A stretch of DNA of 20,333 bases from a virus. Taxonomy: Duplodnaviria > Heunggongvirae > Uroviricota > Caudoviricetes. Under the pieces are notes generated by a model. The model saw nothing but the letters and a program-made list of their open reading frames with translations, did not search any database and was not told the origin of the DNA. Position numbers and translations under genes: made by a program. Of the stretch, positions 4,150-7,850 are shown piece by piece. The stretch is taken from positions 1 through 20,333 of the IMG/VR virus record IMGVR_UViG_2778261452_000004. One strand, written 5' to 3'. Position 1 is the stretch's first letter. Every line of letters starts with the position of its first letter.

Positions 4150-4436
4150 AAATAACCTTCCTTTCTCCAGATTTCTTGCGTGCGAAAAACACCTTCTGCA
4201 TGCATCAGGCGTAATTCTTCTTTGGTGTAATCGCTTGTTTTTACCCGCCCGTCGATTAAATCGTGGCACGAGCTACAGGCAATCGCTGCCTGCATATCGT
4301 GTGGCTTTATCGCCGTTCCGCACGTTCCCGCCAGTCGGTAATGCGCCAGCACAGACGTTTCGGGATTGTGATTGCAGTAGCCAGGAATTCTGACCTGGCA
4401 CATCTGGCCCCGCGCCGCTTTACGTAAATCCACCAT
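4146..4436 (-). CDS. YbcO-like DUF1364 protein (putative Zn-binding nuclease of the nin region), 96 aa
   Basis: Sequence (…LRKAARGQMCQVRIPGYCNHNPETSVLAHYRLAG…) matches my recollection of DLP12 YbcO; Cys/His-rich; start overlaps the upstream gene stop (TAATG). Confidence 0.75.
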   Translation of the reverse strand: MVDLRKAARGQMCQVRIPGYCNHNPETSVLAHYRLAGTCGTAIKPHDMQAAIACSSCHDLIDGRVKTSDYTKEELRLMHAEGVFRTQEIWRKEGYL

Positions 4437-5035
4437 TACGCAAACTCCAGTAGCTGCGCGGCCACATTTTCGACCTGTTCCGGAGAGGAAAATTTACGGA
4501 ACAGAATCCAGTTCCACAGCACATTCAGTACAGATTTATAAACCTGCTGAAACTCGGTTTCGTCCATATTCGCAAACGCGATGGATTTCGCCCTGCGCCC
4601 ACGGCTACCGTCCGGATAAATATGCTCGGTGTAAAATCCGGCCTGAATGGTTACCCACTCGCGGAAAGCCTCAAACGACATTAGCAATGCCGTATCACGG
4701 GTTCTGCGTGTCGCAACTGTATTCAGATATTGCTCTGCGGCTTCGCTCAGAGCTGGCGTATGTTCCCGGCCTACTGATTCACACAGGTAATCAACGAAAC
4801 CGGACACCAGTTTTCGTTCGCTAGGCGTGATCGCCCCACCGACCGGAGTCCAGTAATCGAAACCCAGTTGCAGGAGTTTGAAAAAACGCTTGTGGAATGC
4901 GTAGTTACGCACACGCTTAAAGTCTGCGTGTATCCACTCACCTATTTTGATTTGATGCAGAAAATCGCAACTCTCCGGCGTCGCCGGGAGAAGTAAACCA
5001 GAAGAAGTTTGTTTGACCAGTTGTATATGCGCCAT
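4436..5035 (-). CDS. Nin-region phage protein, DUF1367/YbcN-like, 199 aa
   Basis: Complete track ORF directly upstream of and translationally coupled to the YbcO-like gene; family assignment from memory only. Confidence 0.5.
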   Translation of the reverse strand: MAHIQLVKQTSSGLLLPATPESCDFLHQIKIGEWIHADFKRVRNYAFHKRFFKLLQLGFDYWTPVGGAITPSERKLVSGFVDYLCESVGREHTPALSEAAEQYLNTVATRRTRDTALLMSFEAFREWVTIQAGFYTEHIYPDGSRGRRAKSIAFANMDETEFQQVYKSVLNVLWNWILFRKFSSPEQVENVAAQLLEFA

Positions 5036-5308
5036 TTCTCAATCTCTCGATGGCGCAGTGCAGCAGATGCCAGTTGTTCAGGCCGACGTATAAAGTATAA
5101 ATAAACTGATTCCAGTGTAAAGCCCCCACATTGATGGAATAAAAACCAAACAACAGATTGCTGGGATAAAAACAACGCTTATTATTAAAAGCGGTTAAAC
5201 AAATTAAATTTTAATGTTATGCAAATCTACCAGATCACCATAATATCTCATTTGAAAACCACTGAAATAACAACCCTATCAGGATTAATCATATTAAGGT
5301 GAGTAAAT

Positions 5309-5395
5309 ATGGAAAACAACAAATCTGCACATTACGCTCCTTTTTTATCTGTAATACTTTTTGTTTTATGCTGTGCGTGGGCATTATTTTTATAA
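5309..5395 (+). CDS. Candidate small hydrophobic peptide, 28 aa (MENNKSAHYAPFLSVILFVLCCAWALFL)
   Basis: Not in the track (under 60 aa). Found by reading: ATG at 5309 with AAGGTGAG 5 nt upstream, stop TAA at 5393-5395; polar N-terminus then one 17-residue hydrophobic helix; AT-rich region beside hok. Confidence 0.3.
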   Translation: MENNKSAHYAPFLSVILFVLCCAWALFL

Positions 5396-5501
5396 AAATA
5401 TTTACAGATAAAATAAACCCGCCAAAGCTGGTTAAGTGTGGGTGCGTTGAGGATGCATAATACATCAGAGGTGGCGAGGGATTTCTCCCTCGCCCGGTCT
5501 C

Positions 5502-5657
5502 TTACTCCTCAGGTTCGTAAGCTGTGAAGACAGCGACCTCCGTCTGCCCGGTTCGGATTCGTACCTCGCAGAGGTCTTTCCTCGTTACCAGCGCCGTCAC
5601 AATGACGGTTAAACAGATGACGATCAGGGCGATTAACATCGCCTTTTGCTGCTTCAT
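5502..5657 (-). CDS. hok: Hok/Gef-family type I toxin, 51 aa
   Basis: MKQQKAMLIALIVICLTVIVTALVTRKDLCEVRIRTGQTEVAVFTAYEPEE matches HokD/Gef-type toxins as recalled. Track ORF 5502..5714 carries an in-frame 19-codon upstream extension; the canonical Hok start is ATG at 5657. Confidence 0.85.
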   Translation of the reverse strand: MKQQKAMLIALIVICLTVIVTALVTRKDLCEVRIRTGQTEVAVFTAYEPEE

Positions 5658-5830
5658 AGCCTGCTTCTCCTTGCCTTTCGACACGTAAGAGGCTAACCTA
5701 CATGTGCAAAGCATGAAATTGGCCTCAGATTAATGTTAAGCGTCTTGCCGGACGCGTAATGTTAACTGGGGCTTTTCTCTATCTGCCTTTTGGTGTTCAT
5801 GCCTGAGGCAGATAGCCTCAAGCACCCGCA
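5658..5830. promoter_or_regulatory. hok leader region; expected site of promoter, mok start and antisense Sok RNA (plus strand)
   Basis: Inference from the known hok/sok architecture; the region holds several hairpins (gcgtcttgccggacgc at about 5740-5755; atctgcct…aggcagat at about 5782-5816). Sok ends not determined. Confidence 0.3.
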
Positions 5831-6214: not shown

Positions 6215-7312
6215 ATGACAATTTCATATATTCCTATTCTGAAAGCGAAACGTTCTGAGTTATCAGCTTTATCGCAGCTATCCATTGAAAAGAAATCAAA
6301 AATTTTGCCATTACTCGAAATTGAACCAGTGCCAATTGACCCTGATTCAGGTATTGCCTTAAAGAGTTATAACGAGACTCTTATAGAGTTCGGAAAGAAA
6401 GTCTCAAAATCTTGCTCAGATATGCAAGGTGTTTATATTGATGGATTATTAATTGAAGAGCATTTTATTTCTCCTGAAGATCATTACCCTATAATAAATG
6501 CGGTTAATCAAGTTAGAGATATGGGGATAAGAGTTATTCCTGTCAGTTCACCAACTCGCCCATCTAACTATAAAAGAGCGATTGATGAATTAATGCAGAA
6601 TGAAATATGCTTGAGATTAACCACGTTAGATCTGGTTAACCCACAATTAATAACGCATTACATTAATCATCTGGGAATTCCTTTATCAAATATTGATATA
6701 ATTATTGACTTAAGAGATGAGTTAACCGAGGATAAACTTAATTCCGGCGAACTATATACTTTGGCAATGGGATTGATAAACAATCTGGCGCACCTCAATG
6801 AATACAGAAAAGTGATTCTTTCTGGGGGTTCATTTCCTACAGATCTCAGTGATATTTCTGTTGGTCTATATTCTCAACCTCGAATCGAGTGGATTTTATG
6901 GCAGAGTTTAATGAATAGAAAAGAACTTGCCAGAAATGTGATTTATAGTGATTATGGAGTACAGCACCCCGACTTTAATAGGCTTTCGACGCGATTCCCT
7001 AGCGTATCTGCCAGCGTCAGATACTCTGGAGATAATGACTTTTGGGTATTTCGAGGAAGAGTAGCTAATCGCTTTGGTTATGAACAATATGGTAAACATA
7101 GTGAGGATATTCTTGCTCATCGAGAATATTCAGGGCCTACATTCTGTGCGGGAGATAGAGACATAGAATATTATGCAAACGAGTATCAAGCCTACAAAGC
7201 CAATCCCTCTGGTAACTATAAATTTGGTAGCCCAGAGGTATGGCGTAGGATTGGGCAAAACCATCACATAACTAAGGTTGTTGAGCAACTCGCCACTCTT
7301 TACGGGCTTTAA
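6215..7312 (+). CDS. 'Beta protein'/sce7725-family protein, 365 aa; candidate defence-module component
   Basis: Complete track ORF with AAGG ribosome-binding site; strongly AT-rich, A/T-ending codons unlike the flanking phage genes; N-terminus MTISYIPILKAKRSELSAL resembles the Beta_protein family as recalled (unverified). Confidence 0.8.
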   Translation: MTISYIPILKAKRSELSALSQLSIEKKSKILPLLEIEPVPIDPDSGIALKSYNETLIEFGKKVSKSCSDMQGVYIDGLLIEEHFISPEDHYPIINAVNQVRDMGIRVIPVSSPTRPSNYKRAIDELMQNEICLRLTTLDLVNPQLITHYINHLGIPLSNIDIIIDLRDELTEDKLNSGELYTLAMGLINNLAHLNEYRKVILSGGSFPTDLSDISVGLYSQPRIEWILWQSLMNRKELARNVIYSDYGVQHPDFNRLSTRFPSVSASVRYSGDNDFWVFRGRVANRFGYEQYGKHSEDILAHREYSGPTFCAGDRDIEYYANEYQAYKANPSGNYKFGSPEVWRRIGQNHHITKVVEQLATLYGL

Positions 7313-7850
7313 GTTTAACTCGAACAGCTTCACGAAGCTCGCCAACATCCATACTATTGGCGAGTTTTGACCATAAGACGCGTTTAGGTTTATTTTTCAA
7401 ATTCTGTAGCTCCCCTGCATCACTTAATAGGGAAAGCAATTCATCTTTCCAAAGAAGCATTGTTAAGGAAAGTTTGTCCACTTGTGGATTCAACTTGCTA
7501 GTTCGAATTGTTTTTAAATGGATACCTTGCCGTGCACCTTGCGTAACTTGCTTTATCCCCCACCATGATGGAACTATGCTTAAAGCATCATAAAGATGGC
7601 AATCAGAGACAACCAACGTTACTTTATCCATCACAGATGAGTAATGTTGCACCTGCGCTGGTAATCTGAGCAAGTTATCACTCTTGCTCTTCAACTCATA
7701 ACCATGTATAAGCCCATTGATCACTGCTATATCAGCTCTGCTAGCCCCTAGATTCATCGTAAACTCATCAATGATTAGGGTGTCAGGATCTTTATGATGA
7801 TCTCTCAGAATCTTGGCATGCACAGCCTTTCTTACATCAATGTCTCTCAT
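7272..7850 (-). CDS. sce7726-like protein with PD-(D/E)xK nuclease-like motif, 192 aa; candidate partner of the beta-like gene
   Basis: Complete track ORF convergent with the beta-like gene and overlapping it by 41 bp at the 3' ends; motif IIDEF…RADIAVINGLIHGYELKSK (D40, E52-x-K54) fits a restriction-endonuclease-like core. Confidence 0.8.
   Translation of the reverse strand: MRDIDVRKAVHAKILRDHHKDPDTLIIDEFTMNLGASRADIAVINGLIHGYELKSKSDNLLRLPAQVQHYSSVMDKVTLVVSDCHLYDALSIVPSWWGIKQVTQGARQGIHLKTIRTSKLNPQVDKLSLTMLLWKDELLSLLSDAGELQNLKNKPKRVLWSKLANSMDVGELREAVRVKLKARKEWRVAQQP

Follow-up and report, generated by a model that had tools for sequence, protein, structure and literature searches.

The AT-rich gap beside hokD in the Rac-type lambdoid prophage studied here (IMG/VR record IMGVR_UViG_2778261452_000004, positions 1 to 20,333; this whole stretch of 20,333 nucleotides is referred to as the window) raises the question of whether a plus-strand open reading frame (ORF) of 28 codons is a gene, and whether its hydrophobic product, in which a first reading of the letters alone (the sequence-only reading) had seen the architecture of type I toxins and other small membrane peptides, is such a toxin. 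Judged by the substitutions among its copies, this small ORF is probably a protein-coding gene under selection, and we favour, with moderate confidence, the explanation that it is a genuine gene for a 28-residue single-pass inner-membrane peptide of the moron type, carried in an exchangeable cassette of Rac-type prophages. The two features at the centre of the analysis are the following:

5309..5395, plus strand: ORF of 28 codons and a TAA stop, product MENNKSAHYAPFLSVILFVLCCAWALFL, called from the sequence, the intact copies and the selection in frame +1.
5296..5303, plus strand: Shine-Dalgarno (SD) sequence AAGGTGAG, called from the sequence and from the predicted pairing of its AGGUGA with the 3' end of the 16S rRNA.

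The sequence and the ORF list agreed with the anatomy given by the sequence-only reading: the frame runs on the plus strand from the ATG at 5309 to the end of the TAA at 5395, the SD stands 5 nucleotides before the ATG, residues 1-11 form a polar head and residues 12-28 a 17-residue hydrophobic stretch (mean Kyte-Doolittle value 2.78), and the surrounding gap is indeed AT-rich, with a guanine-plus-cytosine (GC) content of 30% at 5100-5411 compared with 45% for the whole window. No start earlier than 5309 is possible, given the in-frame TGA at 5300-5302, and the first codons are A-rich. Every polar residue is N-terminal (head MENNKSAHYAP), the C-terminus reads ...CCAWALFL, and the product, with 28 residues and a predicted transmembrane stretch, agrees with the size limit (<70 residues) and the membrane criterion used in searches for type I toxins (Fozo et al. 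2010, PMC2887945). The predicted pairing of the window SD with the 16S rRNA (-8.5 kcal/mol) ranks among the strongest ~5% when random 16-mers of the window are compared, and it equals that of the best neighbouring genes. The ribosome-binding site had been called strong, which holds for the window copy and for about 70% of all copies (-8.5 to -10.2 kcal/mol, the latter in the 666R9 type, where the SD is kept as AAGGTG), whereas about 30% of copies elsewhere reach only -4.4 kcal/mol. An ATG-started ORF of at least 25 codons arose in 96% of dinucleotide shuffles of the 466-nucleotide gap, and the ORF by itself therefore carries no weight; such an ORF, an SD-like motif and 17 residues of equal hydrophobicity came together in only 0.3% of the gap shuffles.

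To follow the frame through related prophages, copies were fetched by a conserved anchor located 130 nucleotides upstream of the ATG (window 5178-5221) and thus independently of the ORF. The 28 codons were kept in 121 of 121 readable IMG/VR copies and in 215 of 215 when metagenome contigs were added, an independent count below 215 since some IMG/VR contigs were fetched twice. The stops or frameshifts that the sequence-only reading had named as evidence against the ORF were thus absent from every readable copy, and the substitution pattern was of the coding type. Downstream of the ORF the copies fell into three contexts, namely the hok 3' end (164 copies), a bidirectional terminator followed by an S8 peptidase gene (24 copies) and unrelated AT-rich DNA (22 copies), and the homology among these three ended just after the TAA. 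In the BLAST comparison with the most diverged lineage (666R9/Shigella type), only positions 10-112 of the query 5285-5400 aligned, that is, from the SD to the stop. Variable columns made up 47 of 71 in the upstream spacer (5222-5292), 27 of 84 in the ORF and 6 of 7 after the stop; no gapped column was present in the ORF despite its runs of T5 and T6, while indels occurred in the flanks.

Comparison of the diverged lineages by the Nei-Gojobori method gave proportions of synonymous differences (pS) of 0.36-0.51, close to the divergence of the spacer (~0.5), and of nonsynonymous differences (pN) of 0.13-0.19. The pN/pS ratio in frame +1 was 0.25-0.45, and this was the sole frame of the six that combined a low ratio with freedom from stops; its mirror, frame -2, has the same low ratio but carries stops, and shares its wobble positions with frame +1. 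In a minimum-spanning network of the haplotypes, the 44 steps were distributed over codon positions 1, 2 and 3 as 8, 15 and 21; 19 steps were synonymous and 25 nonsynonymous, compared with 13 and 29 expected, no step created a stop, and the helix acquired no charged residue and no Asn, Gln, His or Pro. When neutral evolution was simulated with the transition bias seen in the data, all three outcomes coincided in ~5 of 10,000 runs (P ~5e-4). Twelve residues were invariant (N3, N4, H8, P11, L13, S14, I16, F18, C21, W24, F27 and L28), which suggests a specific interaction, not generic membrane damage or hydrophobicity.

Several observations weigh against a selected gene. The 19 nucleotide haplotypes encode 16 distinct peptides, pointing to only moderate selection, per-pair Fisher P values ranged from 0.002 to 0.09 with few lineages and pairs that are not independent, and the statistics of the haplotype network ignore recombination. 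The family is restricted to Escherichia and Shigella, so that its divergence is shallow. In the weak-SD copies mentioned above, the SD is replaced by AAAGTGAG or AAAGCGAG, and no consensus sigma-70 promoter was found for the small ORF on the plus strand. Moreover, the copy of E. coli PK8566 (NZ_CP080172.1; positions 700-1510 of our locus L267), the only disrupted copy met, is interrupted after codon 9 by an IS1X2 element with an 8-bp target duplication, CGCACATC, and the small ORF is therefore dispensable.

The segment comprising SD and ORF was matched in 1176 of 5426 complete E. coli genomes (~22%), at 1241 places in all, with one or two places per matching genome (median 1). A degenerate scan with PFLS[VI]ILF-N15-WA over one genome per species (185,579 species) matched only Shigella flexneri and Escherichia ruysiae, apart from one spurious cyanobacterial match, and the deeper selection tests therefore lacked distant homologues. 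None of the 60 E. coli genome matches listed had an annotated feature beneath it, and the ORF was likewise unannotated in four induced-prophage records and in two records of a plasmid collection (chromosome-sized, ~4.8-4.9 Mb). Prodigal applies a minimum gene length of 90 nucleotides. The expectation that most gene callers would miss the ORF was borne out, since it measures 87 nucleotides with its stop and was annotated in none of the RefSeq and GenBank matches listed; that a small membrane peptide gene has here escaped the gene callers is supported and, as far as the sequence can tell, very likely. An exact look-up of seven peptide variants in a collection of 15 billion proteins returned none of them, a full-text search of a library of papers with the peptide and five of its sub-strings gave no match, and a preprint surveying Hok is silent on the ORF. 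We regard the small ORF as defining a small-protein family that is new and unannotated but of a known kind. The Qin prophage region of K-12 does not contain the cassette and has ydfU-rem-hokD in its place. A genome labelled E. coli DH5alpha (NZ_CP026085.1, 4.83 Mb) carries the cassette at 99% identity (2582840-2582955); given the K-12 Qin region without it, this genome may be mislabelled or not a K-12 derivative.

The position of the ORF in the prophage is given by these features:

5100..5411, no strand: AT-rich cassette of ~310 bp, delimited by homology breakpoints and GC content.
5502..5657, minus strand: hokD.
5652-5827, minus strand: sok/hok 5' region (Rfam, 118 bits).
4436..5035, minus strand: DUF1367 gene.

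In the equivalent prophage of E. coli 042 the order, all on the minus strand, is ydaT/U/V, a cargo slot, hokD, DUF1367, DUF1364, DUF1133 (Q-like), tRNA genes, lysis genes and trkG; the small ORF lies antisense to this early-right operon, between hokD and the DUF1367-DUF1364-Q block, directly upstream of that block and pointing away from it. In E. coli 042 (NC_017626.1) the ORF is located on the complementary strand at ~1547500-1547600. Among 80 loci sampled by a DUF1367 protein at least 96% identical, 36 had the small ORF, and in the rest DUF1367 and the hok module were present with different DNA between them. Relative to loci that have no ORF, the breakpoints fall at ~5035-5131 on the left and at 5395-5427 on the right. 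Otherwise near-identical prophages (loci L131, L134, L140, L133 and L202) carry other contents in the slot equivalent to window 5036-5427:

Minus strand: cassette with a 57-residue gene (MKIEELREIFSENGLYAVRVENG...) or its variant of 87-95 residues.
Cassette with a Rem-like gene of 83 residues, as in K-12 Qin.
Only 33 nucleotides (L202).

The small ORF therefore belongs to one of several swappable mini-cassettes and travels with DUF1367. The association with hok implied by the sequence-only reading turned out to be incidental, as hok is missing beside the ORF in two other contexts and many hok-DUF1367 loci are without the ORF; it stands near hok because of the slot it occupies and not through a functional pairing. 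A perfect 16-nucleotide A/T palindrome, TATTTTTATAAAAATA, at 5385-5400 spans the stop codon, where the homology of the three contexts ends, and could be a recombination junction. In the cargo slot to the right of hokD, a 365-residue ORF (6215-7312, plus strand) matched the PADLOC model PD-Lambda-2_C almost end to end (E 1.4e-41), and an overlapping 192-residue ORF (7272-7850, minus strand) matched the PADLOC model 'cll' (E 1.4e-28). By these profile matches, the slot here seems to carry a candidate anti-phage defence gene; elsewhere the same slot holds QueH (E. coli 042), KilA-N (strain A17) or an S8 peptidase with an FtsH-like gene (phage 683R6).

Signals that may govern transcription around the ORF were sought in an alignment of the six cassette lineages and in the window:

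5241..5246, plus strand: TAATAT (TAACAT in other lineages), a candidate -10-like element with no good -35.
5194..5225, no strand: A/T block GTTAAACAAATTAAATTTTAATGTTATGCAAA with the near-palindrome ATTAAATTTTAAT, conserved in all lineages, the next 70 nucleotides being ~50% identical.
5176..5193, minus strand: weak terminator-like hairpin CGCUU-N8-AAGCG followed by UUGUUUUUAU (U-run to 5166), upstream of the DUF1367 promoter-like site.
5094..5121, minus strand: promoter-like TTTACA-16-TATACT leading into DUF1367-DUF1364-Q, identical in six lineages.
5416..5433, no strand: hairpin 20 nucleotides past the ORF stop that serves the convergent hok mRNA as intrinsic terminator; the U-run, on the minus strand, occupies 5415..5405.

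Apart from TAAYAT at 5241-5246, which is a candidate promoter element of the small ORF, inspection of the six-lineage alignment revealed no conserved -10-like hexamer upstream on the plus strand, and no LexA box or alternative sigma motif was seen in the upstream region by eye (no tool scan). The A/T block could, from its position, be an UP element or an activator or operator-like site between divergent units. The only well-conserved sigma-70-like promoter of the region is TTTACA-16-TATACT, which lies inside the cassette and suggests, as a sequence motif, that the DUF1367-DUF1364-Q block has its own promoter in prophages with this cassette; the leader of ~58 nucleotides between it and DUF1367 (5036-5093) is identical or nearly so in all six lineages. 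On the other side of the ORF, the hairpin at 5416-5433 is not followed by a U-run when read on the plus strand, and transcripts of the ORF may read into the hok 3' (fbi) region. The stem of this hok terminator (AACC.GC....GC.GGTT) has a mismatch in the window, while most other copies have the perfect CCCGCCGAAGCGGG; in the 683R6 context a perfect and truly bidirectional terminator follows the ORF instead.

Other frames and pairings in the gap were considered and set aside. The overlapping ORFs at 5299..5460 (plus strand, 53 residues) and 5289..5465 (minus strand, 58 residues) extend beyond the homology boundary and contain stops in other lineages. A same-frame ORF at 5219..5302 (plus strand, 27 codons) was found by hand translation to measure 22, 27 or 32 codons depending on the lineage, with a shifting sequence and no SD, and is probably no gene; it begins at a conserved ATG within the A/T block and its TGA stop falls inside the SD of the small ORF. 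A role as leader peptide or upstream ORF was rejected as no plus-strand gene is consistently downstream in the three contexts, and sequestration of the SD by CACC (5237-5240) or by CUCCUU inside the ORF was rejected because these pairings are either not conserved or no better than in shuffles.

Which alternatives could account for the same observations? One is the toxin itself, that is, a new type I toxin-antitoxin module whose peptide would depolarise the inner membrane and be held off by an antisense RNA, either a transcript that starts at the minus-strand promoter-like TTTCCA-16-TATGAT (5315..5288) and ends at the hairpin 5193..5176, or a hok or early transcript that reads through. Size and hydrophobicity match known toxins, ShoB (26 residues) likewise ends in ...LFL, the prophage location is beside the type I locus hok/sok, and the ORF is without an annotated partner and distant from the flanking genes. 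The two minus-strand sites may, moreover, bracket an antisense RNA of ~110 nucleotides over the 5' untranslated region, and in the 666R9 lineage, where both arms of the hairpin have changed, pairing survives as G-U in the minus-strand RNA only, the plus strand having A-C mismatches. The sequence-only reading had called for a search of toxin collections and for an overlapping antisense transcript; the former gave no match and the latter no convincing candidate. Three peptide variants compared with Pfam, NCBIfam and PHROGs (E up to 10) matched neither Hok/Gef, Ldr, TisB and Ibs nor any further toxin family, and two variants compared with PADLOC (E up to 1) gave no such match either; the profile searches returned only sub-threshold noise (Sec20, the Lp6.6 signal peptide and an Rz-like spanin). 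Neither a conserved antisense promoter nor a structured antisense RNA was found in the sequence: the -10 of TTTCCA-16-TATGAT is out of register in 666R9, the putative RNA is no more stably folded than its shuffles (z -0.49), and a search against Rfam gave nothing there. Sequestration of the SD by mRNA structure is established for hok, tisB, zorO and others, whereas the start region of the small ORF is open (5270-5330, -3.8 kcal/mol, z +1.07; 5250-5399, z +1.64; 5192-5330, z +0.29; 666R9-type start region, -4.7 kcal/mol, z +0.20). The search criteria for type I toxins include a polar, charged or bulky C-terminal cluster and a tandem copy, the latter frequent though not required (Fozo et al. 2010, PMC2887945). 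The peptide has no such cluster, and neither blastn nor tblastn found a tandem copy in the window. Some accepted type I toxins, ShoB and Ibs among them, also have no polar C-terminal cluster. Taken together, a type I toxin is rather unlikely. A dual-function transcript, which would encode a membrane peptide and, as an antisense RNA, control both the 3' processing of the hok mRNA and the activation of the Hok toxin, is improbable, and so is the other idea, that the peptide founds a family of its own, limited to Rac-type prophages, of type I toxins or of superinfection-exclusion proteins. The former idea arises because three quarters of the copies have no terminator of their own and converge into the hok 3' end that holds fbi (~5438-5451). 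The fbi element locks hok mRNA in an inactive form. On the minus strand at 5438-5451, the fbi-like CCUCAACGCACCC is complementary, with one bulge, to the 5' end of the hok mRNA, GGGUGCUUGAGG.

The other two alternatives deny that the ORF is a gene of its own. In one, which is unlikely, the frame is incidental and the conserved island is a cis-acting DNA or RNA element, for example signals gating transcription into DUF1367-DUF1364-Q. Frames of this length are as common in the shuffles as noted above and T-rich codons specify hydrophobic residues; the cassette does hold minus-strand signals (the conserved TTTACA-16-TATACT and the hairpin), the -35-like TTTCCA of the minus-strand site overlaps codons 1-3, many substitutions alter the amino acid, and frame -2 has an equally low ratio. 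That ratio, however, is the expected echo of shared wobble positions in a frame interrupted by stops, and an element of this sort would hardly account for a third codon position that is the most variable, for synonymous sites diverging about as much as the neutral spacer with nonsynonymous sites ~3-fold lower, for an island bounded by the SD and the stop and free of indels, or for helix replacements that are all hydrophobic or small. In the other, the ORF is the relic 5' end, with a signal peptide, of a longer gene for a secreted protein or lipoprotein that was severed at the cassette junction. This is very improbable. It could draw on the weak likeness to signal peptides (Lp6.6, E 0.027; Rz-like spanin PHROG, E 0.009), on the lipobox-like LFAGC of the 666R9 lineage and on the end of homology right after the stop codon at the AT palindrome, but all lineages share the length of 28 codons and the stop, and purifying selection acts among them. 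A lipoprotein would have the lipobox [LVI][ASTVI][GAS]C and a mature domain; the window copy has F-V-L-C with only 7 residues after the Cys, F-A-G-C occurs in 666R9 only, and the motif is missing from most variants (FVLC, FVFC, FACC). Furthermore, tblastn (E up to 10) of 50,697 phage and 72,556 plasmid records gave no longer ORF with the same N-terminus.

We thus return to the small ORF as a moron-type gene for a membrane peptide. From its observed anatomy, distribution, intactness and coding-type selection we infer its transcription, topology, timing and target as follows. The polar head would be cytoplasmic, with the 17-residue helix making up the rest of the peptide as far as the C-terminus; the peptide would be made in the lysogen from a weak A/T-dependent promoter of its own; convergent lytic transcription would shut the ORF down after induction; and the peptide would most likely exert its effect by attaching to a larger membrane protein of host or phage, not by killing the cell. 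Moron behaviour is likely because the ORF runs against the early-right lytic operon and its translation would start at an open site driven by the SD. As is usual for morons, the unit is present or absent between conserved neighbours and differs from them in base composition (36 of 80 loci; GC 30% versus 45%).

The ORF is carried by roughly one in five complete E. coli genomes (~22%), by Shigella flexneri and by E. ruysiae, and its predicted peptide fits no described family. Small membrane proteins are still systematically absent from bacterial annotation, and those of prophages are among the least studied; if translated, the peptide would constitute a new small-protein family and a tractable object of 28 residues with clear invariant positions, and it is a candidate for roles in lysogen physiology, in the exclusion of other phages and in the control of prophage induction. 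In Rac-type prophages the cassette itself separates a hotspot for cargo or defence genes from the block with the late-gene regulator, and the recognition that the DUF1367-hok slot trades alternative mini-cassettes helps the annotation of such prophages.

Type I toxins (Hok, ShoB, Ibs, TisB, DinQ, ZorO and Ldr) are likewise small, hydrophobic, often encoded by prophages or other accessory DNA and often unannotated, and the ORF is located ~100 nucleotides from a hok/sok locus; unlike them, it has no family match, sequestered SD, demonstrable antisense RNA, polar C-terminal cluster or tandem repeat. The usual examples of phage morons are lambda bor and lom and the HK97 morons. The cassette resembles them as a small, low-GC accessory unit that is present or absent in near-identical prophages, between two operon genes and against the lytic transcript. 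It differs in that classical morons have a recognisable promoter and terminator, whereas here no promoter is recognisable beyond the conserved TAAYAT and A/T block and a clean terminator follows the ORF in the 683R6 context only, and in that its product is far smaller than typical moron proteins. AcrZ, MgrB, MgtS, KdpF and CydX are single helices of ~30-50 residues that act by binding larger membrane proteins. While these regulators belong to the core genome, several of them located beside or co-regulated with their partner, and the ORF described here is prophage cargo without an adjacent membrane-protein gene, the invariant N3, N4, H8, P11, S14, C21 and W24 suggest a comparable specific contact. 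YnfS, a 29-residue protein of the K-12 Qin prophage, is supported by ribosome peaks at its start codon and by detection of the tagged protein (10.1101/511675). It has no evident sequence similarity to the peptide and is located downstream of Q beside cspF, not upstream of DUF1367; both, however, are prophage-encoded, consist of fewer than 30 residues that begin with a short polar head, include two adjacent cysteines and end in a hydrophobic stretch at the C-terminus, and were missed by classical annotation, and by the analogy of their layout YnfS is the closest validated counterpart of the peptide.

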